A stretch of DNA of 64,000 nucleotides from a virus (lineage: Duplodnaviria > Caudoviricetes), in the IMG/VR virus record IMGVR_UViG_3300025087_000689; one strand, written 5' to 3'. Under the pieces are notes generated by a model. That model did not search any database. It was given only the letters and a program-made list of their open reading frames with translations, and was not told the origin of the DNA. Every line of letters starts with the position of its first letter. The first letter of the stretch is position 1. Below, piece by piece: positions 7,210 to 29,141 of the stretch. The position numbers were made by a program, and so were the translations under genes.

Positions 7210-7220
7210 GTATGATATAG

Positions 7221-7309: not shown

Positions 7310-7316
7310 AAACTGA

Positions 7317-8507: not shown

Positions 8508-8555
8508 GTTCTAAACTCCTCATTTAGTATTTTTGATATGTTTGACATAATTTAA

Positions 8556-9051: not shown

Positions 9052-9075
9052 TTATGTATTTCTTTAAATTTATTT

Positions 9076-9873: not shown

Positions 9874-9883
9874 AATAAAATTT

Positions 9884-9970
9884 TGGGCAGGGAAGGACTC
9901 GAACCTTCGAGGACCACAAGGGCCGACGGATTTACAGTCCGTTGCTTTCGACCAACTCAGCCACCCGCCC
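9884..9970 (-). tRNA. tRNA-Tyr(GTA)
   Basis: ACGGA-CTGTAAA-TCCGT anticodon arm, long variable arm, GGTTCGAGTCC. Confidence 0.92.
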
Positions 9971-9971
9971 G

Positions 9972-10274
9972 TTATAAGTTTAAATCTATTATATTATCTG
10001 GTTTAGTTTGTATATTACGTTGTGTTATCTGACCATCAATTAAATTTTGACGAGTGAAAGCTTCATCAAGACCTTGGTAAGTGGCTATATAGTTAACAAG
10101 ATCGACCAATACCATATCTACAATAGTGATAGGTGTATAGGCATCTTCTCCATCTTTATAACCAATAAGATGCTTATTACGTTTAATACTTACCCACGGA
10201 CCTTTAGATCTATATTCAATAATGTTCTTCTCTATAAGGTCAATGAGTTGACGTTTAGATGTTATTGTTGACAT
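9972..10274 (-). CDS. hypothetical protein
   Basis: 100-aa ORF. Confidence 0.65.
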   Translation of the reverse strand: MSTITSKRQLIDLIEKNIIEYRSKGPWVSIKRNKHLIGYKDGEDAYTPITIVDMVLVDLVNYIATYQGLDEAFTRQNLIDGQITQRNIQTKPDNIIDLNL

Positions 10275-10280
10275 AGATCC

Positions 10281-10507
10281 TCAGACTAAGTTAAGAATAT
10301 TTATAGGTTGAACTATCTCACAATCATCTAGGTCTAAAGCAGTTTCTTTATTATCAATCATAATTATATAAAATTTACTTTTAACTATATGAATATGTGT
10401 TGTTGGAGCATATGAGATTACAGGTAATTTTGTTTCTATCTCCTTAATATAATGGACACTATAAGTTTCACCTACACGTTTGTACCTTTAGTTATTAGTA
10501 CTTCCAT
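10281..10507 (-). pseudogene. frameshifted small ORF
   Basis: MEVLITKGT then continues in another frame KRVGETYSV...QPINILNLV*; one extra A at 10479-10481 would restore the frame. Confidence 0.45.
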
Positions 10508-10962
10508 TATTGATTATCTCCACGAATATTATTTAAGATAGTTTTGCTAAATTTTATTACGTCTTCATGCGTCCATGTATGTTTACAAAAATTATACATC
10601 ATGCATACAAGTTGTATATTATCTTTCTGATACCCTTTAGAATTATCTTTTCGATCAATAGATATAGCCCACGGACTCATTTCTTTTGCGTTTGGACTTA
10701 TTTGAAATGGAATTTTTGTAATTATACACTTTCCTTTTTGTTCTTTAAATAATTTTGATAAAAATTCATATTTTACATCACATATTTCATTGCGTCTATA
10801 TTTAGATCTTGATCTAATTTTTCTTGCAAGAAATTTTAGAACGTGTTCGAAACTTTTTTTATCATGTGCTTGTCTATATATTCTATTGTATTTTCTATGA
10901 CATTTATCACTACATGTTTTTAGAATAGGACCTCTTTTATGAGAAAATGATATACCACACAT
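10507..10962 (-). CDS. His-Me finger (HNH-like) endonuclease
   Basis: CSDKC, CIITKIPF, SIDRKDNSKGYQKDNIQLVCMMYN. Confidence 0.75.
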   Translation of the reverse strand: MCGISFSHKRGPILKTCSDKCHRKYNRIYRQAHDKKSFEHVLKFLARKIRSRSKYRRNEICDVKYEFLSKLFKEQKGKCIITKIPFQISPNAKEMSPWAISIDRKDNSKGYQKDNIQLVCMMYNFCKHTWTHEDVIKFSKTILNNIRGDNQ

Positions 10963-10976
10963 TTTACATGTTGTTG

Positions 10977-11174
10977 TTAATTCAGTATATGTATATTTTT
11001 TTTCTCACACCCGCAATTTTGACAGCTTCCTGTTTGAAGATATGCTCCAATGATTGTTTTTGAATTACCGCATTCGCATTTGCATAGCCACGATATCTTA
11101 TTTGATATTTTCCCGTTTTCTCGAATAACAGTTAATTTACCAAATTTTTGTCCTTTTAGGTCTAATTTAATCAT
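10977..11174 (-). CDS. homing-endonuclease DNA-binding repeat fragment
   Basis: DLKGQKFGKLTVI...WLCKCECGN..SCQNCGC module without a nuclease domain. Confidence 0.7.
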   Translation of the reverse strand: MIKLDLKGQKFGKLTVIRENGKISNKISWLCKCECGNSKTIIGAYLQTGSCQNCGCEKKNIHILN

Positions 11175-11218
11175 AATATAGGATTTCCTTTCTCCTATAT
11201 TATACTATTATTGAAATA

Positions 11219-11253
11219 AAACTTCTCGTAGATTTATAATCTACGAGAAGTTT
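11219..11253. terminator. perfect 16-bp hairpin
   Basis: AAACTTCTCGTAGATT-TAT-AATCTACGAGAAGTTT at the end of the DNA ligase gene. Confidence 0.7.
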
Positions 11254-12346
11254 ATTCGTAATCTCTAATTTCTATTAAAACTGGAAATCTTGGTATACCT
11301 TCATTAGTTTTTTGTTGAAATCTAATTATGGCTTTTTTTCCCACTAATTCTTGTAAATTTTGAAACCATTCTTTTCGCTGTTGACGGGATCCTTTTGGCC
11401 TTGCTTCAAATTCTTTGCCTTCTTTGGTAATAAGTTGGAATACGATTGTACCTTTATCATTTCCGGTTGCTTCTTTGCCACCTATAATTTCAAATTCATC
11501 GTCATCAAAATTCTTCCACTTTTGGAGATTTTTTGAACGGTGTTTGAATTCGTATTCACCTTCTTTATTTCTTATCATTATTCCTTCGTATCCATCTTGA
11601 ACAAATTGTTCATGATACTTAATGATCTCAGCTTCATTCTTGACTTCATATGTTGGAACACGAACTAAATACTGAGGATTTTCCATTTTATCGAAAAATT
11701 CTTTTATAAGTCTTGTTCTAGTTTCAAAAGGAAGACCTTCATTTGCCAAATCATAAATATAATATTTAAGTCTGAAAGGTTCTCTTGTTTTCTTAACAGC
11801 TGCAACTATATCCTGAAAAGATATTTCATTATGACAATATACTTCGCCGTCTAAAGGTGATTGTACTTCAGCTTCAAAGATTGAACATTCTTCATCAAAT
11901 TGATCAAGAGTAGTAAAAGGTTTACCGCCACGAGAATTAAAGGTGTGATCTGTATAGATGCAACGCACTCCGTTAAACTTTGGCTGCACGTAGCAAGGAA
12001 ACTTAATATCATGTTTACGTTCAATATACTTAAGAGCAAGCATAGGAAGCAGTAACTTCTGTGTCTTCTGAGCCTTCTTAGTCTCGGTATATCCTTCATC
12101 CTTCTTCTTATTCCACTTAGATTGAGCATCAGATACGGCTTGATCAAATGGAGTTGTTTCATTTTTCTTGCCGATATTCAAACCAACAGTAATCTCTCTG
12201 TGATTAACTGCTTGTTTCTTACCTTCAAGACCGTGTTCCATGGTAATAAGAACATCTTTAGCACGTTCATCTACGCGTATATTAATAAGTTTAGTGCGAC
12301 CTGTTGAACCTGTACCATAAAGTGTTGGAAAGATTTTACTTTTCAT
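11252..12346 (-). CDS. ATP-dependent DNA ligase
   Basis: QPKFNGVRC (motif I), LDGEVY, YDLA, YEGIMIRN, LQKWKNF, OB-fold RFPV. Confidence 0.92.
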   Translation of the reverse strand: MKSKIFPTLYGTGSTGRTKLINIRVDERAKDVLITMEHGLEGKKQAVNHREITVGLNIGKKNETTPFDQAVSDAQSKWNKKKDEGYTETKKAQKTQKLLLPMLALKYIERKHDIKFPCYVQPKFNGVRCIYTDHTFNSRGGKPFTTLDQFDEECSIFEAEVQSPLDGEVYCHNEISFQDIVAAVKKTREPFRLKYYIYDLANEGLPFETRTRLIKEFFDKMENPQYLVRVPTYEVKNEAEIIKYHEQFVQDGYEGIMIRNKEGEYEFKHRSKNLQKWKNFDDDEFEIIGGKEATGNDKGTIVFQLITKEGKEFEARPKGSRQQRKEWFQNLQELVGKKAIIRFQQKTNEGIPRFPVLIEIRDYE

Positions 12347-12551
12347 TTTTATTCCTTATTCTAGTCATATGAACACTAGCGTAATCATTGGTATTCATAC
12401 CCAAGATTTTCCCTTTCCACTCTTTCATTTGTTTCTCTGAGAGTGGACGTTTGAACATAAGGCTAGTTACTACGTAAACCTCAGCGTTACGCGGATTCTC
12501 CAGTACTGCTGCTGGTCTTATCTTTATCCTCACTTTGTATTTTATCATCAA
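12336..12551 (-). CDS. hypothetical protein
   Basis: 71-aa ORF. Confidence 0.55.
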   Translation of the reverse strand: MMIKYKVRIKIRPAAVLENPRNAEVYVVTSLMFKRPLSEKQMKEWKGKILGMNTNDYASVHMTRIRNKNEK

Positions 12552-12768
12552 TTACCTCTATTTTATATGTTTTGAGAACTTGTATAAGCATCTCCAATCT
12601 TTGGAGAGTACCAATACAGTTTGCTATTAACATTGCAGTACCAATGACAAAAAAAACTTTCGCGATTGATACAGATGTAAATACTGTAAGTATAACACCT
12701 GTACATAATAGTAACCACGCAAAAGTATAACCCATGAGAAAATCCCAGATTTGACAAAATGTTTTCAT
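12487..12768 (-). CDS. small membrane protein
   Basis: two hydrophobic segments. Confidence 0.55.
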   Translation of the reverse strand: MKTFCQIWDFLMGYTFAWLLLCTGVILTVFTSVSIAKVFFVIGTAMLIANCIGTLQRLEMLIQVLKTYKIEVIDDKIQSEDKDKTSSSTGESA

Positions 12769-12953
12769 CGTAACTCCTTTACTTCATTCTCAAGTGTTTT
12801 GATATGTTTTTCCCATCTATCCATGAAGGATGATGGAGCACCTAATTCTTTTAATCGAAGTACGAAACGTTTAGTGTCCCGTATTTCTTTATAGGTGGCT
12901 TCTTTCCAAGCTTTAGGAAATAAAAACTTTAATATTTTTAGATGTGGTTTCAT
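12765..12953 (-). CDS. hypothetical protein
   Basis: MKPHLKIL...; ATG 13 nt after the tRNA-Leu 3' end. Confidence 0.55.
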   Translation of the reverse strand: MKPHLKILKFLFPKAWKEATYKEIRDTKRFVLRLKELGAPSSFMDRWEKHIKTLENEVKELR

Positions 12954-13062
12954 ATAATTTAAACAGTCTCCGGGGTGAGATTTGAACTCACAAGCCCTTA
13001 AGGGCAACGGATTTTACTTACTCATCTTACTTTCGTAAGCCTCTTACGAGTTTGAGTTTGGA

Positions 13063-13695
13063 CTATATCTTAGCCGTATCTTTCGAGTTAGGCTTTCCGG
13101 GCGTAGTCTCTGAACCTTCCTCATTTGAAAGAGGCTCGGCTGCTGATTGTCCAATATCACTTATTTTTATAACCTTCGCACTCGTTTTTTCAAACCATGC
13201 TGTAGTTAAGTGATCTCTTAGGATATTCCAGCAATTTTCGGAATTACTACTATGATTTTTCAACCATAGCGACCAATGATGTTCGATATGTCTATGTAGA
13301 GCTCCATGTGATCTACGATCCATTAGACTTAGATTATTTGGTTCATTGTTTGTTGGATTATAGTCTAGATGATGTGTTACAAATCCTTTTGGAGTTGTAA
13401 TACCAAGTTGATCTATAATCTTTCTTGCTTCGTATCTTCCATGCTGCCTAATAGGATCATTTTTATGAATCTTACTTGGTCTGCATTTTGCATGAGATAC
13501 TTGGCCAATTCTCCAAATCTTCATGTCTTTCTTACAGATAGAACATTTTGATATACCAAAGTAATGTCTTCCTACTTTCTGGTATCTGATTCTTGCTCTT
13601 TCTGTATTGTAGGTTCTAGAGTGTTCTAGACATCTTTTTCTTTCATGAACACCTTTTTTTCCACAATCAATACAGAGTTTATCTTCCTTCTTCAT
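13063..13695 (-). CDS. intron-encoded HNH homing endonuclease
   Basis: VTHHLDYNPTNNEPNNLSLMDRRSHGALH; SD TGGAGG; reads through the intron core. Confidence 0.85.
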   Translation of the reverse strand: MKKEDKLCIDCGKKGVHERKRCLEHSRTYNTERARIRYQKVGRHYFGISKCSICKKDMKIWRIGQVSHAKCRPSKIHKNDPIRQHGRYEARKIIDQLGITTPKGFVTHHLDYNPTNNEPNNLSLMDRRSHGALHRHIEHHWSLWLKNHSSNSENCWNILRDHLTTAWFEKTSAKVIKISDIGQSAAEPLSNEEGSETTPGKPNSKDTAKI

Positions 13696-13712
13696 ATAAT
13701 ACCTCCATAGAT

Positions 13713-13741
13713 ATTATACTTTGTTGGAAGACACAATTCAA
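13713..13741 (-). promoter_or_regulatory. sigma70-type promoter inside the intron L1 loop
   Basis: TTGAAT-N17-TATAAT upstream of the HNH. Confidence 0.65.
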
Positions 13742-13794
13742 GTATAATTGTGGAGAATCAGTCCGTTGTGTATGCCAGTTCCACCACCCGGAGG

Positions 13795-14034
13795 TTAATT
13801 TTGTCGATTGTATTTATTTAACTTGTTACCAGAAACATATGTTGTATCATCTTCTTGTCCAAGAAAACTTCTGATTCTATATATACCATTATCATCTAGA
13901 CATCGTACAAAGGCTATAGGAAATCTTGCTTTATACATCTCAGTCTGTATAATAACACATAAATGAGATGTAGTGTCCCACTGCATCCTTTGTTCCTGAT
14001 AATGTTTCTGTTCTCTTGTAGGTTTTTTACACAA
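13795..14034 (-). CDS. hypothetical protein
   Basis: 79-aa ORF. Confidence 0.5.
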   Translation of the reverse strand: MCKKPTREQKHYQEQRMQWDTTSHLCVIIQTEMYKARFPIAFVRCLDDNGIYRIRSFLGQEDDTTYVSGNKLNKYNRQN

Positions 14035-14068
14035 CCTATTAAAAGAATAATAAGAATTAAAAGGTATT

Positions 14069-15166
14069 TCATTTAAACTCTATAACTTTATGGTTTTTGA
14101 AACATAAAAAGTTTTTTGCTCCAAGTTCCTTACTTAAGCATTTAGCAAATATTTCTGCATCTGGGTAAACATATTTATTTCCGGCTGAAGTATATACATA
14201 ACTCGTGACATGTTCGAAACAGGTTATAACTAAAGTAAAATCTTTAATATCATCTTTCTGTATTGCGTATCTAAGAAGATCTGCATCTAACATCGACACG
14301 CGAAATTCACCTTGGTATTTGTGAGTTACATTGGTTTCATTTGGGTCGTGTATGATATGTTCTTTAAGATCTTCATTAGTCATAGGACCATTACCATGGC
14401 GTGTTTGGTAACAACGGGTTACAAGATATATTTCTGGATCGGTCACTTCCAGCTTTTTTAAATTTGTCATACCACAGTTACCACGAGTAACATGTGGAAA
14501 GAATCCTATGTCTTGATCGAGCATTAAACCCTGAGATCCTTCAAAGATATTAACTGATTCAACTCGATTGATATCTCTATCCCATTTCATTAATTCGATG
14601 CGAATCTGTTTTTCTTCAAGTAAGAGATAACAAGTTGGTAGGAAATCTTTGTCGTATTCAGCGAATTCTTGTAAGTATTTTTTTCTTATCAACTCTAACT
14701 TAGTTTCGAAGATCTTTGGGTAAAGAAGATCACCTACAAGAAGTGAATAATGTTGTTCTTCGCGTTCAATGGTTTTACCAAAACCTACACCACACGTACC
14801 ATTTTTTCTGTTCCAGGAGTTTTGAGTATTAGTCCATTTATCATACGGAGTAGTAATAGGACATCTTGGATCAAGATATAGAGTAGGTTCAATACCTTTC
14901 TTACGTAGAACTTTTAATTCGTTCGTAATACCTACTGGATCAACCGTGCATAGTCGAGACCAATAGGTAATATTACCTCGAAAGCTACCTGAGCCGAAAT
15001 TGGAGAAAACATGGCGAATGCCATTATGTACAACAGTATGTCCCGCTTGATGACCACCACTAAATCGTGTAACGATAGCATCAGGATACTGAGAGCAAAG
15101 GTAGTCTGTTACGACACCTTTCGCACAGTCACCAAATCCAGCCCCAATTACGGCTAGGTTTTTCAT
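14069..15166 (-). CDS. purA: adenylosuccinate synthetase-like protein
   Basis: GFGDCAKG, RFSGGHQAGHTV, GTCGVG, FEGSQGLMLD..GFFPHVT, TRHGNGP. Confidence 0.85.
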   Translation of the reverse strand: MKNLAVIGAGFGDCAKGVVTDYLCSQYPDAIVTRFSGGHQAGHTVVHNGIRHVFSNFGSGSFRGNITYWSRLCTVDPVGITNELKVLRKKGIEPTLYLDPRCPITTPYDKWTNTQNSWNRKNGTCGVGFGKTIEREEQHYSLLVGDLLYPKIFETKLELIRKKYLQEFAEYDKDFLPTCYLLLEEKQIRIELMKWDRDINRVESVNIFEGSQGLMLDQDIGFFPHVTRGNCGMTNLKKLEVTDPEIYLVTRCYQTRHGNGPMTNEDLKEHIIHDPNETNVTHKYQGEFRVSMLDADLLRYAIQKDDIKDFTLVITCFEHVTSYVYTSAGNKYVYPDAEIFAKCLSKELGAKNFLCFKNHKVIEFK

Positions 15167-15321
15167 CTTAAGCTTTCTAAGTATTTGATATTAATCTGTT
15201 GTTCTTCAATAATTCTTACTAATCTATTTATATCTTTCATCTGGATAGCAGGCCATCCTTCAGGTGAATGATCTTTGTTTAAGTCTTTTATTCTTTTGAG
15301 AAACTTTTTATTCATGACCAA

Positions 15322-16155
15322 TTACATCGTTGCTGTGATGTTAATAGGCATAGCCGATTCCTGTGCTACAGCTATTGTCGTTCTCGAAATGAGACCAACA
15401 ATATTCTGATGTCTTGGAGCAATAAGAACATTATCGTTACCCATAAGAACTCTCCAACTTTCAGCAACACCACGTCCACTACGTGAATCTTCGTTATGGA
15501 TGTGATAGACGTTATACTTTTCACGGGCAGTTGCAAGAAGTTGTGCAGCCGTATAATCTTCATATTGGCCGTCACCCATGATTTTCTTGATAACATCTTT
15601 TGAAAGGTTAGAAAGAACAGGTTCATCACCTATCGTGAAGAGAATACCCTTCTTGGCTCGTTTCTCAAAACAGTCAATGGCTGTATGTTTCGACGCGAAA
15701 TACCACGCAAGGTGGTAACTTTCACCAGCATTTCCACCACCACCACCTTCAAGGTAGACATCAGTGAGCCACTTATCCAAAAGAGCATCACTGGACTCGA
15801 ACTGTCCAACCTGTAAGGGTGCACGATCGCATTCGTGGTCGCCGACGCCGAGAAACAGCAACTGTGGATGTAGAATACCACCATCAATGATGGTCTGCAT
15901 GATCTTGGGAAGACCTTCTCTTACTAAATAGTGAGGAACTGATCCCATCGATCCTGTAAGATCTAAAGCTAGAATAATCGCGAAACTTTCTGGATGTTCT
16001 ATAGAATCTCTTGCTTCGCGAAGCTGGACCCCATAGGGATTCATTGCACTGTTGATTGTTGCCGCTGTGAAGATCTCTCTGGCTGATTTTGTATCATAAC
16101 CGAGAGATGTTGCTCTCACTGTACGTGAAAGACTTGAATAACTTCCGCCACCCAT
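15322..16155 (-). CDS. vWA-domain protein
   Basis: MIDAS LDLTGSMG, GGGGGNAGESY, FTIGDE; likely start MGGGSYS at 16155. Confidence 0.85.
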   Translation of the reverse strand: MGGGSYSSLSRTVRATSLGYDTKSAREIFTAATINSAMNPYGVQLREARDSIEHPESFAIILALDLTGSMGSVPHYLVREGLPKIMQTIIDGGILHPQLLFLGVGDHECDRAPLQVGQFESSDALLDKWLTDVYLEGGGGGNAGESYHLAWYFASKHTAIDCFEKRAKKGILFTIGDEPVLSNLSKDVIKKIMGDGQYEDYTAAQLLATAREKYNVYHIHNEDSRSGRGVAESWRVLMGNDNVLIAPRHQNIVGLISRTTIAVAQESAMPINITATM

Positions 16156-16156
16156 G

Positions 16157-16342
16157 TTATACCTTACCTTTCTCTGATTCACAATCGGGACAACCTTTAC
16201 ATTCACATGTATCGGTTTGTTCTGGTGTTACAGTTGGATTTGCAACTGGTTCAACTACAGTTGAGTCGTTTGTTTTTGCTGCTTCTTCCGCTACTTCTTG
16301 TTCTTCGAAGCTTGAATACTTTGCGTCTTTTCCTCCGCCCAT
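16157..16342 (-). CDS. small acidic protein
   Basis: SD AGGAG; starts MGGG like the adjacent vWA protein. Confidence 0.6.
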   Translation of the reverse strand: MGGGKDAKYSSFEEQEVAEEAAKTNDSTVVEPVANPTVTPEQTDTCECKGCPDCESEKGKV

Positions 16343-16451
16343 ATTGTCTCCTATGTTAAATATTAATGTTTTAATCGACTGAACTAAAGGTCCGAAGGAT
16401 ACTTGGTTTATGTATCCAACCTTTAGGTAAGAATATTTTATAGACCCGCCG

Positions 16452-16730
16452 TTAACTGTATCTCATCAGACTTAATCCTCTTTGGTTTAAATGTTTTTTT
16501 AAGCCAAATCGAATTTGTTCTTCTTCTGATATAATTGAAGCTGATGTGAATTTGTCATTCACAGTGAAAAAGACAAGTGCTTTATTCGGATGATCTTTTA
16601 AACAAAAGGTTCTGATAGTGCCAAGATGAGAAGATTTTTTGTTGATTCGTACGAGATCCCAAGTCTTTCTCGATTGAGTTAAGGCTTGGAGATACTCATT
16701 GATTGATCTTTTGGAATCTATACTTGGCAT
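16452..16730 (-). CDS. hypothetical protein
   Basis: SD AAGGAG. Confidence 0.65.
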   Translation of the reverse strand: MPSIDSKRSINEYLQALTQSRKTWDLVRINKKSSHLGTIRTFCLKDHPNKALVFFTVNDKFTSASIISEEEQIRFGLKKHLNQRGLSLMRYS

Positions 16731-16747
16731 AAGAACTCCTTAATTTA

Positions 16748-16822
16748 TGGGCCTGGAAAGATTCGAACTTTCGACTCCATTCTTAAAAAGAATGTACTCT
16801 AATCCAACTGAGTTACAAGCCC
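16748..16822 (-). tRNA. tRNA-Lys(TTT)
   Basis: CATTC-TTTTTAA-GAATG anticodon arm, GAAAG-TTCGAAT-CTTTC T arm. Confidence 0.9.
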
Positions 16823-17010
16823 ATTATTTTTAAACTTAACATAATAACTATGGCTATATTTGATAGGAAAGAAAAAAGAGCGTCAACCATAATATAAGTG
16901 AGTCTTTCTTTTTTATGAATTATTGCGGCTAATATAGAAAATGTTAATAAAATAATCATTGGTATTTTTAATGGGAAAGGGGTAATGATATAATCCATAT
17001 AAAGTTGCAA
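16813..17010 (-). CDS. small membrane protein
   Basis: two hydrophobic segments; stop lies inside tRNA-Lys. Confidence 0.5.
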   Translation of the reverse strand: MQLYMDYIITPFPLKIPMIILLTFSILAAIIHKKERLTYIMVDALFSFLSNIAIVIMLSLKIMGL

Positions 17011-17182
17011 ACATATAAAACAAATTGAATATACCTACTTGAATTGATGATAACACATCTTCCCCAGAACTCTTTCGTTTGGATATTCTATATATCCATG
17101 CTAATCTGTCTGGCTTTGCAAGTATTTTTGCCTCGTACAATATCGCGATAGCAAAAATACAAAAGACAACGAAATTTATCAT
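16913..17182 (-). CDS. small membrane protein
   Basis: SD AGGA; hydrophobic segments. Confidence 0.55.
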   Translation of the reverse strand: MINFVVFCIFAIAILYEAKILAKPDRLAWIYRISKRKSSGEDVLSSIQVGIFNLFYMFATLYGLYHYPFPIKNTNDYFINIFYISRNNS

Positions 17183-17386
17183 GATATATCCTATTTATAA
17201 ATGGTGGAGTTATTTATGTTTTACCACTTTCACCCCATAATACTCGAAATAAAGGCAAGGGCCCCCCCATGTTGGTGGAGGAACCCCTGCTGATTGTCAG
17301 CAAATCTTTATCCTAAAATAAGCTAACGGCAATCATGTTTATTACCTTACGGTAATTCATATATATATATCTAACCAATTCAGTTC

Positions 17387-17498
17387 GGAAAAGTTTAAAA
17401 TACCTGACTTGCCACTAGTCAACTTCCCATCGATAACCACCAATAGATGATCACTGATGGGAAGGTCGGATTCGAACCGACGTGCGGCATAGTTTTCC
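17387..17498 (-). ncRNA. circularly permuted tRNA-like RNA (YrlA/Y-RNA-like core)
   Basis: order 5'->3': ATGCC, T arm GTCGG-TTCGAAT-CCGAC, closed acceptor hairpin CTTCCCATC/GATGGGAAG, D arm GACT-AGTGGCA-AGTC, GGTAT; outer GGAAAA/TTTTCC. Confidence 0.7.
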
Positions 17499-17499
17499 T

Positions 17500-17600
17500 T
17501 ACTAACCAGTCAGAAGTATACGGTTCAGATTGAGTCTGGGACGTTCAAGTGTTTAAGCTTAAATCTGACTATAAGCCTAAGTCTGAATAAAATAACGTCC
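17500..17600 (-). ncRNA. hairpin with hexamer-periodic loop
   Basis: GGACGTT/AACGTCC stem enclosing TTCAGA CTTAGG CTTATA GTCAGA TTTAAG CTTAAA. Confidence 0.5.
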
Positions 17601-17604
17601 AAAT

Positions 17605-18357
17605 TTAGTTGATTATCAAATTGATCAGAGTTTGGCCGATCTTGGAAGTATCCGTTTCGGTCTTATTGGCTCTGGACCTAGCACGTTTGACACCTTCAAT
17701 AAGAGTATCACATCGAGCCAACATCTGTGACTTCTCCAAAGGAGAAAGAGAACCAGCTGTAAGAACCTCCTTGAACTCACCTACAGGTTCATCGGTAGTG
17801 ATGAGTTGGGCTTGGGCTGGATGTTTGTCAGTTGCTTCAGCAAGAGTAATCGGTTTCTGCATCTTCCTTGTTCTGACACGTTTGAATTCTTCTGTCTTGT
17901 AGATGCCTTCCTGTTCGTCTTTCTTCCACTTGTGGAGAGGATCTAATGTAGGGATGTTTTCCAAGACTCCACGCAATGACGTGAGGATCTTTTCATACTG
18001 GACGAGAGCTGTAACAGGAAGATCCTTTGCAATTTCAACGTCTTTACCAGAGCCATCATCTACCAAAAGATTGGCCTTGGCAACAGCATTGGTCCGTTCC
18101 TTTTGCAGAATGATGTCCATATGTTTGACAATGTATGGCATCGTATACTTGAGTTTAGCACCGACAGTTGTAACAATCGGTTTTACTTCTGCTTCAGGTC
18201 TGTCCCTGTCAGCGTCATTGAAAGGATTGTATGTCTTGGCGGATCCAACAAAGTGATCCTTCTTTGTTGCGAATGTGTGTTGTGTTTCGGCGAGAATCTT
18301 CACTGCTGTGTTCTTTGCATCGCCTTCAACGGCGATAAGTTCGTGTAACTGACCCAT
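17605..18357 (-). CDS. conserved helical phage protein (from memory DUF7873-like; unverified)
   Basis: SD AAGGAGG; MGQLHELIAVE start, IPTLDP, HPAQ, RARSRAN motifs. Confidence 0.7.
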   Translation of the reverse strand: MGQLHELIAVEGDAKNTAVKILAETQHTFATKKDHFVGSAKTYNPFNDADRDRPEAEVKPIVTTVGAKLKYTMPYIVKHMDIILQKERTNAVAKANLLVDDGSGKDVEIAKDLPVTALVQYEKILTSLRGVLENIPTLDPLHKWKKDEQEGIYKTEEFKRVRTRKMQKPITLAEATDKHPAQAQLITTDEPVGEFKEVLTAGSLSPLEKSQMLARCDTLIEGVKRARSRANKTETDTSKIGQTLINLIIN

Positions 18358-18399
18358 TAGGTCCTCCTTTTAAGTTTAAATATGAGACTAAAAATTCAA

Positions 18400-18473
18400 C
18401 ATCCCCTGAGAGGTTTGCACTCCCGACCTAAACATTAGAAGTGTTTTGCTCTATCTAGCTGAGCTAAGGGGAC
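18400..18473 (-). tRNA. tRNA-Arg(TCT)
   Basis: AAACA-CTTCTAA-TGTTT anticodon arm; atypical T loop TGCAAAC. Confidence 0.85.
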
Positions 18474-18481
18474 AAAATCTA

Positions 18482-18556
18482 CATTCCCGGAGAGATTTGA
18501 ACTCCCAACATTTTGCTTCGTAGGCAAAAGCTCTAATCCAATTGAGCTACGGGAAT
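18482..18556 (-). tRNA. tRNA-Arg(ACG)
   Basis: TTTGC-CTACGAA-GCAAA; ATTCCCG/CGGGAAT acceptor. Confidence 0.9.
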
Positions 18557-18569
18557 AAAATTAAACATC

Positions 18570-19000
18570 AGACACTTTAAAATGACACAAAATTGTGCCA
18601 GTTACTTCCGTTTTAATTTAAAGACGTTCTACGAGTTCTACTGGCTGAAGTCACGTAGATTATACACGAAACACCTTCCTGGATTTGTCTCTTTGGCGTT
18701 GCCATGCTAGACCGTTCCCTAGGTCTCTATGTCTAGCTAATCCTCCACAATACCAGGTAAGAGTCGGATTCTATTGGCGGTTATTTCCGCCGAATTTAAA
18801 ATATTGTGGCCGTGACAGCCTGTCCCCAGTTATTATGAACTCAATCATAATATCCTATTACTTTGGGTTTCCCATGAGACACTGATAGGACAATACACTA
18901 ACCCCGAAGGGCATATTAATATCTAATCAGGTAGCTTTATATGATTCCGCTTACGAACCTCTGCAGATTCACGCCATAGAATCAGATTAAACAACTAATT
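18570..19000 (-). ncRNA. candidate large structured ncRNA (~430 nt)
   Basis: no convincing ORF; dense hairpins CCC-TTCG-GGG, GG-GAAA-CC, GGCGG/CCGCC, GCTAGAC/GTCTAGC, CCACAATA/TATTGTGG, GCCAGT/ACTGGC. Confidence 0.55.
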
Positions 19001-19015
19001 AAAATTTTATTTAAA

Positions 19016-19265
19016 TTATTTAATCCTTGATGGAAATCCACCTCTGTCTTGGTTTGCTCGTTTGGTTTTTGGTTTACCAATAACTTTAATTTCATTTTCG
19101 TCTAGCCAATAACCCTCAGGAAGCTTACCTTCCTTGTCTATCATGGGGTGTAATCCAATAACGATTACAACCATTAAGATGTTCTGAACGGCAGGTAACA
19201 GTTCCTTCGAAACCAGAAATACTGCTCTTTACCTTAGAACCAAGTTCAATTGCAAAAACACTCAT
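19016..19265 (-). pseudogene. frameshifted conserved small phage protein
   Basis: LGSKVKSSISGFEGTVTCRSEHLNGCNRY...| DKEGKLPEGYWLDE...GGFP; one extra C at 19145-19148. Confidence 0.7.
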
Positions 19266-19289
19266 ACTGTCTCCTTATAAAAATATAAA

Positions 19290-19510
19290 CGTTAAATCGG
19301 AGGAGACTTTACGGTATAAGTCTCCAAACCTCTGAGTTTGACAAAAACTCAATAACACAGGGCGACGTTGACGGTCCTAGCGGAGAGGAAGGATACCGTC
19401 GGATGTCCGTTCGTGCTCCGCCTTTTTGCCTGTTCGGTTAGCCAAGTTAGACTTCTGTGTCTCACCCAGCCATTTAGGGTGCAGAAGGGGGTGACAGCCG
19501 AGTCAGGTCT
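19290..19510 (-). ncRNA. candidate structured RNA (~220 nt)
   Basis: GC-rich intergenic: CTTCTG/CAGAAG with CACCC/GGGTG, GACGGT/ACCGTC, GAGTTT/AAACTC, GGAGACTT/AAGTCTCC. Confidence 0.4.
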
Positions 19511-19698
19511 TATTCGCATTCATATTCCTGTAGATATGGACTATAAAGATTTTCTGTCATGGCAGTCCAACATCCTTTAATTGTTTCAGGGTATCTTGTT
19601 TCCATAGAATCCCAAAAACGGTAGATTGTTTGACGACCACCAGATTGATGTTTATCCCACTCACCCCAGAACCAATCTATGTCTTCGCGTGCGATCAT
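19510..19698 (-). CDS. hypothetical protein
   Basis: 62-aa ORF. Confidence 0.5.
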   Translation of the reverse strand: MIAREDIDWFWGEWDKHQSGGRQTIYRFWDSMETRYPETIKGCWTAMTENLYSPYLQEYECE

Positions 19699-19918
19699 AA
19701 CTCGTTTTACTTGTGGTTTTGTAACTTGTTCAGTTTATTGCATATTGGTAGTTGTTTCAGGAGTTTTTGCTAGAACTATAGGTTGTGATATAGTTCTAGC
19801 TGATGTTATTCTTCTTGGAGTATTAGATGTAATACTTATAAAGCTCATGAACGCTATAGCAAATAAAATGACTACTCCAATCATGACCGTTACTTGTTTC
19901 ATACAAATCCTATATTAG
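19679..19918 (-). CDS. hypothetical basic protein
   Basis: 79-aa ORF slot in the operon; the ORF track strand label and coding frame were not independently confirmed. Confidence 0.25.
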
Positions 19919-20541
19919 ATGTTATATTTTAATAAGTAATCAGGCGATATTACTTTAAAACTAATCCGGTTTAAACTAAAATCGTTTAGCTCTCGGATTA
20001 CTATACCCTCTCTAAGATCATCAGGACCTGATTCGTAGGAGCCTTTCGACATCTCCACGAGTTTATCAATCGTGGTGTCTTTTAAAGATATAACATGATT
20101 CACAACTGGAACAGTTTTCAGTCCTAGGAAGGTGCAAACAAGACCCATCTCAACAGGATCTAAATATCTGTGTTGTTTGACGTTATATACGTTAAAAACA
20201 AACAGTTCAAGTTCTTTGAGCTTGCATCTGTTCTTCTGTATACCTGGACCTGCTATTTCACCTTGGATCCAAAGTGTTTCACCATAACTTTTGAGTTGTT
20301 TTTTGAGATTATATTTTATCGCGATTTTACTCCAGTTTGAGTTATCATCCTCTTTCTTTTTTAATTCGCGGGAGTATATTCCAAAGAAATCGCGGAAGAT
20401 ACCTTTCTTATAATAGTAAGTCGCAGAACAATTATGAACTAAAATACCGTTAGCAAAATAATTATGAAATGATGTTTCTATATCATATTTTTTAGAATTG
20501 TTTTCTATTTTCTTGATGAATACAATTTCATCCGTTTTCAT
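19915..20541 (-). CDS. split-intein C-fragment (37 aa) + RNA ligase C-extein
   Basis: YDIETSFHNYFANGILVHN|CSATYY; then QGEIAGPGIQKN, FVFNV, LREGIVIR, SFKVISPDYLLK ligase motifs. Confidence 0.9.
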   Translation of the reverse strand: MKTDEIVFIKKIENNSKKYDIETSFHNYFANGILVHNCSATYYYKKGIFRDFFGIYSRELKKKEDDNSNWSKIAIKYNLKKQLKSYGETLWIQGEIAGPGIQKNRCKLKELELFVFNVYNVKQHRYLDPVEMGLVCTFLGLKTVPVVNHVISLKDTTIDKLVEMSKGSYESGPDDLREGIVIRELNDFSLNRISFKVISPDYLLKYNI

Positions 20542-20542
20542 A

Positions 20543-21541
20543 TTAGTTCTCCATTTTTTTTAAGATTAGTTGTTCTAATTTTTTTTTATCTTTAAAACAA
20601 TTTTTAATTTCATCTTCCCAAATATACACAACTTTAAATCCTTTAGATTCTGCTAATTTCTTTTTTTCTTTGTCGTAGTCCCAAATTTCTCTTGCTGATT
20701 CAATTCCATAATTGAATTTGATAAGATCATCAGCCTTATATATGTTTGGATTAGCGTGCCAATAATCTCCATTTACTTCAATAATAATTTTATTATCGAT
20801 TAATATATCATAGATTCTTCGTTTTTTATTTGAAATTTTAATAACAAAATTTATACTGAATGGAATATTAAGTTTTAGTAAAATCTCTCTAATAGAATAT
20901 TCTAATGAAGAGTTATAAATTCCTCCACTTTTACAATTTGCTTCAATACATTTATCGTTTAGTAATGATTTATTTAGCCATTCATTTTTTTCTTCGTCTG
21001 TAATGTTCTTCCATTTATCTTTCATTACCTTTGAAAAGTATTCTGTTCGTGTCACTCCATATTTTGTTAGTAGGTTACTATCTAAACTTGTTTTTATTTT
21101 TTCAATAATTTCTTTTACTTGAAATATATTATCTATATCATTACCATACTTTTTATGTAATGTATTTTTAGTTGTAGGTAGTTGAAATGTATTTTTAACT
21201 CCATATTTTTTTATACATGTATTTTTATATTTGTCTCTTGTTTCTTTGAGATTTGTGGATTCTTTAATAGTTCTTTTTTTAATATTAAAATATTTTAGCA
21301 AAAATAATGTAAAAGAATAATTAATATCGTATTCTTTTTTTAAGTCTGGTAAAGATTTTTTATTATTAATATATAAATCTTCTAATTTTTCTTTATTACA
21401 TAAAGTAGGATAATTATGTTTAATACATAAATACTTTAGTTCAGTAACATTTGTACTTGTTTTTTCTTTACATCTTCTTAGATGAGAGGTTTCTCCTCGT
21501 GGTTTTAGTTCTCTAGAACAAAACGGACATTTAAGTATCAC
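20543..21541 (-). CDS. free-standing Vsr-like (DUF559-type) homing endonuclease
   Basis: YDILIDNKIIIEVNGDYWHANP...DKEKKKLAESKGFKVVYIWE; KKYGV repeats; own promoter and SD. Confidence 0.85.
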   Translation of the reverse strand: MILKCPFCSRELKPRGETSHLRRCKEKTSTNVTELKYLCIKHNYPTLCNKEKLEDLYINNKKSLPDLKKEYDINYSFTLFLLKYFNIKKRTIKESTNLKETRDKYKNTCIKKYGVKNTFQLPTTKNTLHKKYGNDIDNIFQVKEIIEKIKTSLDSNLLTKYGVTRTEYFSKVMKDKWKNITDEEKNEWLNKSLLNDKCIEANCKSGGIYNSSLEYSIREILLKLNIPFSINFVIKISNKKRRIYDILIDNKIIIEVNGDYWHANPNIYKADDLIKFNYGIESAREIWDYDKEKKKLAESKGFKVVYIWEDEIKNCFKDKKKLEQLILKKMEN

Positions 21542-21564
21542 ATCAACCTCCTTAGTATATCTAT

Positions 21565-21593
21565 ATTATACTAAAAAGATTGAATGAATTCTA
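21565..21593 (-). promoter_or_regulatory. promoter for the intervening endonuclease
   Basis: TAGAAT-N17-TATAAT, then AAGGAGG. Confidence 0.55.
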
Positions 21594-22472
21594 GTTTTCT
21601 AGTAAAATATCTCCTTCTTTCAAATCTTCTACTTTGCGATAACAGTAAGAATTTGGTAAATATATCTTATGATTACCTGTAACTTTTATGATTTTACCAT
21701 TTTTTGTGGTGATTTCATACCATTCGTGTTTATTTTCATTTATAAAAGTATTTTTAATTCTAGTTAATTGTATTTTATTAGTTGTAGGATTTACACCAAA
21801 TACTTTACCTTTATATTTAGTGTCGCAAATTTCTTTTATTGTTTTTAGTCCTTTATCTGTGTGAAGTATTGTATTTTCATCAAGACAACCATCAATTTTA
21901 GTTGTAACATACCACTTTTTATCTGAGTTAAGATGAGGTTCAAGATCACGGAAGATAGCTTGTACCCTTGTTTCATCTGTATGAGGAATGCAAGAAGGCC
22001 AACCTTTATCCTTCTTTCTGAAGATAAGAGGTCGTATCTTACGATATAACTTGAACTTACAAAGAAAATGATCAATCGGATGTTGTCTTTTAGCAGTAGG
22101 TGAACATTCACCAGCTTCATCTGTATCGATCTTAGTTACACCTATGATGTCTGTTACATCCATTCCCTCAATAGGGTCTACGATTGCAGGAAAGTCCTTT
22201 AAAGGCATGATAAGACCTTGTGATGTCACACCACGCATTTTCAAAGTTTTGACCTTGTAATGCCTTTTTTCCATAAAGGAGAAGGCTGGAATTATAGGTA
22301 ATCTTGAATCGATCTCAAAATAGATCACAAGATCCCCGGTTTTAATACCGTTATCTATAGCTGTTATACATTTCCATCCATTACCATGCATACTAGCTAA
22401 GACTATTTTATCTGCACCAGGAATAACTTCAAGTGAACTGATTTTTTGTATTGATGCTAGCTGACGAGTCAT
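21591..22472 (-). CDS. RNA ligase (DRB0094/Rnl2-like) N-extein + split-intein N-fragment (98 aa, 21594-21887)
   Basis: LASIQKI...GADKI...YFEIDS, HTDETRVQ, TTKIDG|CLDENT...KVTGNHKIY...LKEGDILLEN*. Confidence 0.9.
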   Translation of the reverse strand: MTRQLASIQKISSLEVIPGADKIVLASMHGNGWKCITAIDNGIKTGDLVIYFEIDSRLPIIPAFSFMEKRHYKVKTLKMRGVTSQGLIMPLKDFPAIVDPIEGMDVTDIIGVTKIDTDEAGECSPTAKRQHPIDHFLCKFKLYRKIRPLIFRKKDKGWPSCIPHTDETRVQAIFRDLEPHLNSDKKWYVTTKIDGCLDENTILHTDKGLKTIKEICDTKYKGKVFGVNPTTNKIQLTRIKNTFINENKHEWYEITTKNGKIIKVTGNHKIYLPNSYCYRKVEDLKEGDILLEN

Positions 22473-22635
22473 AATTAATCCTTTATTTTTTCAATTATTT
22501 TAGTGAATTGGTCTCGGATTCTGATGGCTTCATCCTTATATATGATTTTTGAAGCATATCCTTCTTTATAGTCGTTCATAGTTACCAATAACCTATCTGG
22601 AGAATTGCCAGAAATTCGAACTCTTATACAGTCCA

Positions 22636-23162
22636 TTATTTACTCCTTGTAACTCTCTTTTTTCTTACAACTCTTTGAGGTTGTGTTATTGTCGTTGATG
22701 TATAATTTGATGGTGAATAATAACCTGAACACATATCTGCAGTAATACTATTCATTTTGTTTAAGATGTCTTGTATATCAGTGGGGTCTGAATTTCGATT
22801 TTTATTTGGTGGAGTATATTGTCCGTTTAAATTAGATGGACGTTGTTGTTCTATAAGAACTCCGTGTGTTGTAATATTCTTATGTTCATCATATGCTTCA
22901 CATATTAGATTACGTCCTATACCTGTATATACACAACGTAAAACACAACCTGTTTGAAATCCTCTTTGTGTAAGAGCTACAACAATGCCAAACTTTCCGG
23001 TTTGTTTCTCTTTTTTGTATGTGTAAATGTAAGAGAGAAAGTGTTGTCTTTAATAACACTTATATCTTTAACTCTAGACTTAATACGTCTTAAAATCATT
23101 ATCTGTCGGATTGGAGTTAAAAATTTGCGACATAATCTCGCAAAATGAATACGTAATGTCAT
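22636..23162 (-). CDS. ORF pair joined by a -1 shift at A_AAA_AAG (or frameshifted gene)
   Basis: SD AGGAG + ATG 23162; the -1 frame is open across the A6G run (~23010-23016) and runs about 125 codons to TAA 22636. Confidence 0.5.
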
Positions 23163-23184
23163 GTGACTCCTATCAATAAAAATT

Positions 23185-23269
23185 TCTGTGCGGCAAGATT
23201 CGAACTTGCGATGTCTTTCGACTCCTGGTCCCAAACCAGGTGACCTTAACCAGACTATCCGATGCTCAG
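23185..23269 (-). tRNA. tRNA-Pro(TGG), degenerate, with extra arm
   Basis: CCTGG-TTTGGGA-CCAGG; variable hairpin GTC-GAAA-GAC; two acceptor mismatches. Confidence 0.7.
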
Positions 23270-23317
23270 ATATTATAGTTTATATTCAAACTATTATGTC
23301 AAAGAACTCTAATTTAA

Positions 23318-23390
23318 TCCGACTGCAGGAACTTGCATCCTGTTATTAGGTCCCACAAACCTATGCATTACTATATATGCTACAGAAGGG
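23318..23390 (-). tRNA. tRNA-His(GTG), degenerate
   Basis: TAGGT-TTGTGGG-ACCTA; T loop TGCAAGT; two acceptor mismatches. Confidence 0.65.
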
Positions 23391-27165: not shown

Positions 27166-28452
27166 TTAAGTTAATACTTTTGGATATTTTTTCAAAGACT
27201 TTGCATCTTTGTTCCAAACACAAACGTCTCCTTGTTGATACCAGTCTTCTCCATCTTTTGATACCGGTATACTTTTCATAGCTTGGGGTTTTCTGCTATT
27301 CAATGCCTTCTCCACAGTATCGCAGTCTGGTGGAACGCCTTCAATATGATATATTCCAATGCTAGGATTCAACATTTTTAAATAAGGTCTGCTTCTATCA
27401 CCAAGATTAAGATTCAAAAGTTCATAATTACCAATTTTATCTAAAATAGTTGCTCCTAAATCCTTACAGACTTTTTCTATACCTATTTTCCTTACTATTT
27501 CCCTTCTTATTTCTACATTGGTTTCCTTAAGGATAATATTTGAGTCTAATTTGTCCCAAGCAGTCATAACCAAGTCTTTAGGAACACTAACTCCATTAAG
27601 ATTATATATAGAATACCCATCACTGTATTCTACAGAAGGACCATTTTCACAATGAAGAACATTTCCTTTAAACTTCAAAGTCTTAGGCTTCTGGGAAAGA
27701 AATACAATATCCTTAAATATAAACATATAATGAACATATTCATGTACCTTTTTGAATATTTCCCATCCTTGCATATTATCTATTTTCTGGACTTCACTTA
27801 TCAAATAGTCATAAAAAGAGCAATATCCACTAAAAATATTACCATTCGTACCAAAATATCCTAATAAATAATATTCTAACTTAAGACTGCGAAGCTGACT
27901 GTCAAGCTGACTGTAAAGCTGACTGTCAAGCTGACTGTCAAGCTGACTGTAAAGCTGACTGTAAAGCTGACTGCGAAGCTGACTGTAAAGCTGACTGTAA
28001 AGCTGACTGCGAAGCTGACTGCGAAGCTGACTGTCAAGCTGACTGTCAAGCTGACTGTAAAGCTGACTGTAAAGCTGACTGTAAAGCTGACTGTCAAGCT
28101 GACTGTAAAGCTGACTGTAAAGCTGACTGTAAAGCTGACTGTAAAGCTGACTGTAAAGCTGACTGTCAAGCTGACTGTCAAGCTGACTGTAAAGCTGACT
28201 GTCGATTTTCAAATTCTTAAAGACTGCTTTTACTATATTAATTCCTATATTACAGGCAAAAGGGGAATCTAAAATTATGAATAGTTTTGGTTCAATATTT
28301 AAATACATTTTTAAATAAGGAAGTAAAACTTCTTTAGCCTTATCTAATTCAATAGGATTATATTCTAATCCTATTTTAGTCCACTTATCTATATAAAAAG
28401 GTATTTTGGATTCTTGCATTGGCGTTAGCTTTGTAATCATATAACCTTTCAT
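27166..28452 (-). CDS. DUF6745-like protein with xSQL tandem repeat
   Basis: KLTPMQE...W...GL N-terminus, LHCENGPSVEYSDGY..Y.LNGV, NVEIRREIVRKIG, CDTVEKAL. Confidence 0.75.
   Translation of the reverse strand: MKGYMITKLTPMQESKIPFYIDKWTKIGLEYNPIELDKAKEVLLPYLKMYLNIEPKLFIILDSPFACNIGINIVKAVFKNLKIDSQLYSQLDSQLDSQLYSQLYSQLYSQLYSQLYSQLDSQLYSQLYSQLYSQLDSQLDSQLRSQLRSQLYSQLYSQLRSQLYSQLYSQLDSQLDSQLYSQLDSQLRSLKLEYYLLGYFGTNGNIFSGYCSFYDYLISEVQKIDNMQGWEIFKKVHEYVHYMFIFKDIVFLSQKPKTLKFKGNVLHCENGPSVEYSDGYSIYNLNGVSVPKDLVMTAWDKLDSNIILKETNVEIRREIVRKIGIEKVCKDLGATILDKIGNYELLNLNLGDRSRPYLKMLNPSIGIYHIEGVPPDCDTVEKALNSRKPQAMKSIPVSKDGEDWYQQGDVCVWNKDAKSLKKYPKVLT
27886..28203 (-). repeat. 12-bp tandem repeat x26.5
   Basis: unit NNC-AGT-CAG-CTT with NNC = TAC, GAC or CGC only. 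Confidence 0.95.
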
Positions 28453-28470
28453 GAATTAAAATCATAAATA

Positions 28471-28648
28471 GAGCGTGCTGTTACGCTAAAGGGAAAGGAG
28501 CTTCACCTACTATCCGCAGTCGAACCTAATCACGCTTATTTTCAAAGCTATCGACCAACTCAATAAGACGTTCGTAGAATTTACTACGACAAGGATTTCG
28601 GTGCTTCGTCCCACTCATTAAGGATGGCTGCTTCTAAGCCAACCACTC
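28471..28648 (-). ncRNA. 23S rRNA GTPase-associated-centre-like RNA with insert
   Basis: GGTTGGCTTAGAAGCAGCCATCC...GAGT [insert] GCGTAACAGC, closed by GAGTG/CGCTC. Confidence 0.7.
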
Positions 28649-28658
28649 AATCCAAAAC

Positions 28659-28832
28659 TTATTTTTCGGCTATAATAGAAGATGATATCTCATTTGGTTT
28701 CTTACCATAATTCTTCTCGACAAATTCAAAGGCTGTCTTGTTCACGTCAGAACAGAACTTCTCATCAGCAGTGAACTTACCTTTGATGTTAGTCTTGTCG
28801 ATCTTACCAATGTACTCGATTTGCTTTAACAT
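28659..28832 (-). CDS. small hypothetical protein (57 aa, below ORF-track cutoff)
   Basis: SD AGGAGG; MLKQIEYIGKIDK...IIAEK*. Confidence 0.6.
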   Translation of the reverse strand: MLKQIEYIGKIDKTNIKGKFTADEKFCSDVNKTAFEFVEKNYGKKPNEISSSIIAEK

Positions 28833-28841
28833 ATTGTCCTC

Positions 28842-29141
28842 CTAATGTCCATACCTATTATATATGGGTTGTTGAGTTGGTATTGTTCGCGAATTTAAAA
28901 GACTATCAAGTGTATGAACTAGTCGTATTTGACAGTATTTGCAGTTACCCTTGTGAACAAGGAATTGTATTTCTGAGAAACTAGCTGGACCAATGTACTC
29001 ACAACCTTCTATCTCAAATATCCAAAGATTTTGGGTATTATCGCAGTTTGTCACTTGTTCTTCAAGTTTGTAAGACTTGATTAGCTCATGATCAGCTGCA
29101 CAGACTAAGATGCATAGTAACAGAATGATTCTAATCATCAT
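28842..29141 (-). CDS. secreted or membrane-anchored hypothetical protein
   Basis: signal peptide; FEIEGCEY...HKGNCKYC motif. Confidence 0.7.
   Translation of the reverse strand: MMIRIILLLCILVCAADHELIKSYKLEEQVTNCDNTQNLWIFEIEGCEYIGPASFSEIQFLVHKGNCKYCQIRLVHTLDSLLNSRTIPTQQPIYNRYGH

Follow-up and report, generated by a model that had tools for sequence, protein, structure and literature searches.

What is a copy of a ribosomal RNA domain doing between two protein genes of a phage? The question arises at one locus of the window (the whole 64,000-nucleotide stretch of DNA that was analysed), where an earlier note, made from the letters alone, had read a phage RNA that preserves the GTPase-associated centre (GAC) of 23S rRNA, the binding site of ribosomal protein uL11 and of thiostrepton, around an insert. 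Our analysis confirms that the locus is the gene for a conserved stand-alone non-coding RNA, neither a chance match nor an assembly chimera. The family to which this GAC-like RNA belongs is very large, extending over hundreds of viral contigs, Lak megaphages, Rak2-like jumbo phages and chromosomal tRNA arrays, and its members probably imitate the ribosomal GTPase centre off the ribosome. Phages carry tRNAs, tmRNAs, ribosomal proteins and translation factors; to our knowledge, no stand-alone gene that copies a functional centre of rRNA, with its tertiary structure kept by compensatory evolution, has been described before. Given its size and spread, the family would be a common and overlooked part of the phage translation toolkit.

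The RNA gene and its surroundings

The gene lies on the minus strand at 28465–28654, about 190 nt from outer closing helix to outer closing helix, and is present in one copy: the covariance model R1, built from 44 members of the family, matches the 64-kb window only at 28464–28655 (90.7 bits, E 7e-22, model positions 1–170). The domain reproduced is H42-H43-H44 of 23S rRNA (E. coli 1051–1108), with a 122-nt, helix-based insert after U1090, and its core is about 90% identical to bacterial 23S rRNA. The minus strand reads exactly as had been claimed, with all of the quoted modules. The ends of the RNA pair, UUGGAU-(U.U)-GAGU with GCUC-(U.U)-AUUUA(U). Within this closing helix the 5' strand GAGU (28645–28648), the equivalent of the tip of H42 (about nt 1054–1057), pairs with GCUC (28471–28474); of the terminal pairing GAGTG/CGCTC proposed before, this GAGU/GCUC part is upheld by homology, whereas the fifth pair, G-C, belongs to H43 and H44.

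The H43 mimic (28622–28644, minus strand, like all features of the RNA) reads GGUUGGC-UUAGAAGCA-GCCAUCC and matches the bacterial 23S consensus; UUAGAAGCA is the 1067 loop, and the equivalent of A1067 is at 28635. The adjoining junction (28613–28621) consists of UUAAU, which is equivalent to 1081–1086 and 1 nt shorter than usual, and GAGU (1087–1090). Between the equivalents of U1090 and G1091 lies the insert (28491–28612), beginning with GGGA and ending with UCCC, and the linker UUUA (28487–28490; UUUG in the family consensus) connects it to the H44 hairpin mimic GCGUAACAGC (28477–28486, equivalent to 1091–1100). This hairpin keeps G1091-C1100 and C1092-G1099, has the loop GUAACA with the equivalent of A1095 at 28482, and is followed by A1101, C1102 and the GCUC strand of the closing helix (28471–28476). 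The window member thus has both loops intact, as had been stated, together with C1072/C1092:G1099, a shortened 1081–1086 junction and U1057-G1103 in the closing helix. Its 25-nt junction variant is that of a minority (12 of 95 members), and we assume that the shortened junction and U1057-G1103 fit the GAC fold.

Standard annotation passes over the locus. ARAGORN and Rfam find no tRNA or tmRNA at 28465–28654, and the short large-subunit match that had been expected in Rfam did not appear, RF02541 giving no match there even at E<=10. The minimum free energy fold of the single sequence (z = -0.15) misfolds the core, a result that is uninformative because the domain is tertiary-structured. Scans for promoters and terminators at the locus return weak consensus matches, and the "terminators" called are the RNA's own hairpins.

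As the earlier note had it, no rRNA flanks the RNA, which fills the gap between two phage ORFs. Both are on the strand of the RNA. One encodes 57 aa; the other, of 428 aa (27166–28452, minus strand), matches DUF6745 (E 1.7e-11) and lies directly downstream, the RNA ending 13 nt before its start codon region on the same strand. The DUF6745 protein contains a long in-frame array of SQL(Y/D/R) repeats, seen as 12-bp repeats in the DNA. A gene resembling ATP-dependent DNA/RNA ligases lies 0.5 kb upstream of the RNA. In Xanthomonas phage XacN1 (L010:529-1179, ORF260) the RNA comes directly after a gene annotated as 2'-5' RNA ligase, with a strong terminator hairpin 3' of the RNA. A tie of the GAC-like RNA to RNA repair, drawn from these ligase neighbours, is possible but unproven.

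A chimeric assembly with host rDNA was looked for and not found. Independent Logan contigs (9.8 kb and 133 kb), from groundwater and soil runs, cover 28174–29100 with zero differences; they run identically across both phage ORF junctions, and therefore there is no chimera with host rDNA. A megablast search of 10 kb of the window against INPHARED gave no match, so the phage is uncultured.

Family members, fold and covariation

IMG/VR contigs, the genomes of cultured phages and bacterial contigs with tRNA arrays supplied more than 200 homologues; these share both loop modules, vary in their inserts and show covariation, all of which had been predicted. By BLAST the conserved 5' module was found in unannotated gaps of the tRNA clusters of Pseudomonas phages UNO-G1W1 and pf16. 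Further carriers are the Aeromonas phage 4_4572, Astolliot, Milchi, XacN1, XaC1, XbC2, GAP32, CBB, Kaldavass, Serratia phage BF, Erwinia pEa_SNUABM phages, Ralstonia phage RSP15 and Prevotella Lak megaphages. Two pattern scans of IMG/VR each returned at least about 120 contigs, both patterns forcing part of the core and taking only insert-bearing copies. A scan of species-representative genomes returned 80 stretches, comprising about 32 stand-alone copies in contigs of many bacterial phyla, 18 true 23S genes without insert (recognised by more than 300 nt of flanking rRNA similarity) and, for the remainder, chance coding matches. R1 gives one full-length match per locus in about 190 to more than 200 loci, and the carriers infect, or occur in contigs of, many bacterial phyla.

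A single copy is the rule among cultured carriers. Pseudomonas phage Astolliot (L009:857-1182) carries a second, divergent GAC-like RNA immediately upstream of its class A copy; this second RNA is class B-like (insert classes are described below), has U1072 and U1092:A1099, and scores 24 bits with R1. Milchi (L013) shows the same tandem arrangement, and two other loci, L153 and L167, have two R1 matches each.

The family appears to be new. Rfam 15 contains no such family; on nine homologous loci Rfam (E<=0.1) reports only tRNAs and one sub-threshold LSU match (31 bits, L054), and a search of full texts, few of them from subscription journals, found no description of it. R1 has no match in PA5oct, an RNA-seq-annotated relative of GAP32 with four annotated ncRNAs. 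Genuine 23S rRNA does occur in phage records: Paenibacillus phage Pd_22F (L014, MZ092003.1, about 82.8–85.2 kb) contains more than 2 kb of it, lacking the insert, which probably entered the record as assembled host DNA or as a packaged fragment, and many short "phage" records of INPHARED are plain 23S fragments too.

The fold was recovered by comparison. RNAalifold, applied to 44 members, finds the closing helix, H43, the 4-bp base of the insert and the H44 stem, with compensatory changes at 14 of 21 pairs. Across 88 distinct sequences 94.2% of cells are paired (68.6% in shuffles, 30–49% in slid controls) and the covariation score is 0.599 (0.142 in shuffles), statistics computed without phylogenetic correction and with parts of the core forced by the search patterns. 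At each of nine closing-helix positions 64–89 of 95 members form a pair, and all four Watson-Crick types are represented. Position 1058 covaries with 1080 (UA 35, GC 31, AU 11, CG 4), while G1059, U1060, G1062-C1064 and C1079 are invariant at positions that the patterns left free. C1102-G1087 is paired in 83 of 83 members and 92 of 95 retain A1101; G/A1056 opposite A1103 is kept across the family. The linker, likewise unforced, has U, U, U and G in 92, 93, 86 and 85 of 95 members, its third U pairing with A1101. At the base of the insert the four pairs are formed in 94, 92, 86 and 72 of 95 members, and GC, AU, UA and CG are all seen.

Conservation extends to tertiary contacts. A 1072/(1092:1099) base triple and a 1082:1086 lone pair are established features of the 58-nt GAC (work of Conn, Gutell and Draper). 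The triple is C/CG in 119, U/UA in 20 and U/UG in 6 of 146 members, with one exception (Fisher 6e-28, uncorrected for phylogeny), and the lone pair covaries among members of standard junction length (UA 47, CG 21, AU 9). [quoted passage not shown] These positions are invariant in the family, or covary as pairs, wherever the patterns left them unforced, and the insert site 1090/1091 is outside the uL11-CTD surface. The exposed bases vary more, A1067 being conserved in 82%, G1068 in 75%, A1095 in 88%, A1096 in 77% and U1097 in 45%; the claim that both loops are intact, which is correct for the window member, therefore does not extend to the family, where about 17% have G instead of A1067 and about 12% have a base other than A at 1095. 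Such variation speaks against a common function that depends on thiostrepton-type or factor contacts.

The claim that the GAC is preserved around the insert is thus borne out by the 90.7-bit R1 match, the covariation and the tertiary signatures, and the comparative data support the view that the RNA keeps the secondary and tertiary structure signatures of the uL11-binding centre. Among known RNAs the rRNA domain itself comes closest. The bacterial 58-nt uL11/thiostrepton domain has near-identical loops and stems and the same secondary structure, and it shares the 1082:1086 and 1072/(1092:1099) covariations, G/A1056-A1103 and the nucleotides that contact the uL11-CTD. Unlike it, the GAC-like RNA is a separate gene with its own closing helix of variable sequence rather than a part of the 2.9-kb rRNA, has a helical insert after U1090, a UUUG linker and A in place of U1101, conserves A1067 and A1095 less, and is encoded by phages and tRNA arrays.

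Inserts and tRNA arrays

In every member fetched the insert lies between U1090 and G1091 and has a covarying helix at its base. Insert length ranges from 27 nt, in the form of a hairpin, to 363 nt, and the whole RNA measures about 100–450 nt. Two classes recur. Class A inserts, to which the window's belongs, start with GRGRC-GAA-G, and their 3' part is made up of a GGA(U)AGUR strand, the hairpin CACC-CCN-tetraloop-NGG-UAA-GG with a covarying inner pair, and the basal helix's 3' strand; the window's insert is without the usual CACCCC-tetraloop-GGUAAGG hairpin. Class B inserts (Rak2-like phages, XacN1, Lak phages) start with UGCGAG or GUCRAG and end with CCCUUAGAGC/A.

The class consensus allows the structure proposed for the window's insert to be assessed in part. 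That the insert is itself paired holds for its basal helix, GGGA/UCCC (28612–28609 / 28494–28491), which covaries, but the proposed GACG/CGTC pairing conflicts with the consensus; the inner pairs TCGTAG/CTACGA and CTTATT/AATAAG are present in the window sequence, and no homologue bears on them. Beyond the basal helix the interior has the junction CGAA and then a helix GCA..UGC with a distal domain; a purine-rich strand, GGAUAGUA, lies at 28515–28508. The string GGTTCGACT, taken before for a T-loop-like motif, is otherwise engaged in the class consensus, CGAA being a junction strand there and UUCG pairing with CGAA in the next helix. The string GGUUCGACU pairs, according to the same consensus, within the second helix of the insert. 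An imitation of H69/H71 or of a T-loop by the window's insert was considered and dropped, with no homologue or search in support.

The longest inserts hold a second piece of the ribosome. A direct pattern search for the sarcin-ricin loop (SRL), AGUACGAGAGGACC with at most 2 mismatches, finds it in 13 of 183 unique inserts (0.155 in shuffles), and all 13 fall among the 18 inserts of at least 290 nt. The copy sits in a hairpin with a covarying stem. It is near-exact, GUACGAGAGGA, in loci L136, L144, L148, L154, L155, L159, L161, L163, L168, L172, L191, L205 and L094, where inserts measure 297–359 nt, and the Lak megaphage copies are related to L136 by BLAST. Such an RNA combines GAC and SRL and therefore brings together both halves of the ribosomal factor-binding site. 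None of the 165 shorter inserts, the window's included, contains the SRL. When all inserts were compared with eight full 23S genes by short-word BLAST, no further rRNA-derived module came up; the SRL itself showed only in the direct pattern search. "Ribosome-in-pieces" oligonucleotides are comparable to the long-insert members, which join GAC and SRL in one natural RNA, and differ in being laboratory constructs; the window member corresponds to the GAC part only.

Many members reside among tRNA genes. At 61 of 95 unique loci a tRNA gene lies within 3 kb, and at 44 within 150 nt; the remaining 34 have none within 3 kb, and neither does the window's locus. All 363 neighbouring tRNAs are on the strand of the RNA, and the spacers between RNA and tRNA are often 1–10 nt. 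In the chromosome of Acidithiobacillus sp. M4-SHS-6 (L244) the RNA is flanked by tRNA-Val and tRNA-Trp in a stretch where 38 tRNA genes are packed into 8 kb; members also occur in dense bacterial tRNA arrays of a Chloroflexota MAG (L221), Thiobacillus denitrificans (L237) and Gemmobacter caeni (L268). Copies in dense arrays on bacterial contigs would make the RNA a component of tRNA arrays generally, not of lytic phages alone. The window has 10 tRNA genes, all on the minus strand like the RNA and 5–21 kb from it, none abutting it. These tRNAs (7119–23389, minus strand: Ser x2, Ile, Leu, Tyr, Lys, Arg x2, Pro and one more) are dispersed over 16 kb and do not form an array.

By analogy, the tRNA-abutting layout would suit a stable RNA that is cut free from a tRNA precursor, as with rnaC and rnaD (species 1 and 2) of phage T4, which are likewise small stable RNAs with no assigned function, on the strand of a tRNA cluster and abutting tRNA genes. 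They have no match in sequence or structure to the GAC-like RNA, and R1 reaches at best 5.6 bits on the T4 tRNA region, which rules them out as family members. No protein neighbour recurs among the family loci (the largest cluster comprises four related loci), and no uL11 gene (PF00298) was found in five carrier phages; a protein partner would therefore be a conserved host component or be encoded elsewhere.

Proposed function and rival explanations

We propose that the RNA is an off-ribosome decoy or sponge that binds host uL11, a model that, taken as a whole and resting on comparative sequence evidence, we regard as evenly poised between right and wrong. The decoy role suggested in the earlier note, with uL11, translation factors, RelA or a toxin as possible targets, is thus plausible. 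The RNA of about 190 nt would be stable, trans-acting and closed on itself by its terminal helix, and would adopt the fold of the 58-nt domain to which uL11 binds in 23S rRNA (the H42 tip carrying H43 and H44), with an extra helical arm in the 5' strand of H44. Copies that abut tRNAs would be co-transcribed with them and excised by tRNA-processing enzymes. The intact uL11-CTD surface would bind host uL11 off the ribosome, and the resulting RNA-uL11 particle would act during infection as a stalk-base decoy or sponge. In this way uL11, or ligands that need the uL11-GAC surface, might be withdrawn from host responses such as the activation of RelA by uncharged tRNA; more speculatively, a phage that adds many tRNAs could benefit from dampened uL11-dependent RelA activation. 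Comparable are 6S RNA, which mimics an open promoter, and bacterial Y RNAs, which have a tRNA-like module: they too work in trans by imitating a nucleic acid that an abundant host machine naturally binds, although their targets and folds are others and neither imitates rRNA. If binding of uL11 or of factors off the ribosome proves true, phages would have a new way of taking over the host or countering its defences; the classic 58-nt GAC system would gain natural variants, including built-in swaps of the base triple, and the role of phage tRNA arrays would become more testable.

The uL11 decoy is favoured because the contacts to the uL11-CTD are intact while the exposed A1067 and A1095 vary more. 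In the cell uL11 is as abundant as ribosomes and is mostly ribosome-bound; a sponge would therefore need the copy number of a tRNA or a more limiting target. Some features are left unexplained by a pure uL11 sponge: the insert at one fixed site in every member (the patterns having taken insert-bearing copies only), the conserved insert classes, and the tandem pairs of different classes in some phages. The SRL copies in 13 of the 18 longest inserts would point to translation factors, tRNA or SRL-directed enzymes rather than to uL11. A more far-reaching possibility, which we consider less likely than not, is that large phages and other tRNA-array elements make in this RNA a portable piece of the ribosome, probably loaded with host uL11, which would rebuild the stalk base (and, in the longest forms, GAC plus SRL) and capture a limiting ligand. 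Such a ligand could be a stress GTPase, RelA together with deacylated tRNA, or an immune effector directed at the ribosome, and the effect might be to keep translation running or to silence the stringent response during the flood of phage tRNAs.

A related explanation, rather unlikely in our estimate, is that the RNA, as a free-standing "mini GTPase centre", imitates the whole factor-binding site, with or without uL11, and sequesters a limiting factor or deacylated tRNA; its targets could be a translational GTPase (EF-G, IF2, RF3, BipA or HflX), RelA, or the elbow and acceptor arm of a tRNA. It stays a serious rival because the longest inserts (not the window's) carry an SRL copy in a covarying stem, GAC and SRL jointly form the factor site, and the RNA resides inside tRNA arrays. 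On the ribosome A1067 stacks on the elbow of the A/R-tRNA and the SRL contacts its acceptor stem (PMC5829649), and both EF-G and IF2 are bound in vitro by SRL and GAC RNAs in isolation (Munishkin and Wool 1997, cited in PMC5829649). Against this, the 165 shorter inserts have no SRL, the factor and tRNA contacts A1067 and A1095 are among the less conserved positions of the core, and EF-Tu and EF-G are too abundant for sponging.

It is more doubtful that the RNA serves as a decoy or tight inhibitor of an enzyme attacking the host GTPase centre, such as an abortive-infection or interbacterial toxin; a Tre23-type ADP-ribosyltransferase acting on H44, or an RNase or glycosidase directed at the SRL, would be candidates. 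Such a role would parallel phage tRNAs offsetting tRNA-cleaving defences, phage tRNA genes being generally credited with a role against tRNA-directed immunity. There are defence nucleases that cut rRNA and tRNA, the RNA shares its arrays with tRNA genes, and long members carry the SRL. However, we know of no anti-phage system specific for the GAC, and none was found in a literature search; facing a catalytic toxin, the decoy would also need to compete successfully with tens of thousands of ribosomes. A precedent at H44 is Tre23, which ADP-ribosylates 23S rRNA at 1095–1098 (PMC8661411), yet positions 1095–1097 are the most variable in the family.

An improbable alternative makes the uL11-stabilised GAC core a nuclease-resistant handle and the variable insert the active part, which would be an aptamer, an antisense or a protein-binding module depending on the phage. 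The range of insert lengths with conserved classes, the motifs that class A inserts conserve on their own account, and the retention by Astolliot of class B-like and class A copies in tandem are in keeping with this arrangement; members whose insert is a hairpin of 27–60 nt would lack a cargo, however, and conservation of the core far exceeds what a stability handle needs.

Regulation in cis, through uL11 binding to a leader of the downstream DUF6745 gene, is very improbable. The 13-nt spacing and common strand in the window would suit a leader like those of ribosomal-protein operons, but the family has no conserved downstream gene, its usual neighbours being tRNA genes on both sides. Ribosomal-protein leaders (L1, the L10 leader RF00557 and others) are nonetheless the nearest functional analogues, as they too imitate an rRNA site to bind a ribosomal protein off the ribosome. 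They differ in being cis-regulatory elements of host mRNAs upstream of ribosomal-protein genes, with a local motif only, whereas the GAC-like RNA has a phage gene to itself, reproduces an entire tertiary domain and has no ribosomal-protein gene nearby.

Finally, the reading of the locus as a captured piece of host 23S rDNA without function, or as a chimera of the assembly, which the near identity of the core to bacterial 23S and the contamination of phage records such as Pd_22F by real 23S fragments might suggest, is refuted by the RNAalifold result and covariation counts (hundreds of homologues with compensatory changes and a self-closing helix), by the Logan contigs, identical across both junctions, and by the lack of rRNA flanks.

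The runs listed as containing the window sequence are DNA runs from groundwater and soil, with no RNA run among them. A second contig from the same groundwater samples (runs X1, X2 and X5) matches only the 41-nt H43 module (window 28606–28646) and diverges on either side of it; its flank is the insert of locus L106, and therefore another phage with its own GAC-like RNA co-occurs in these samples.
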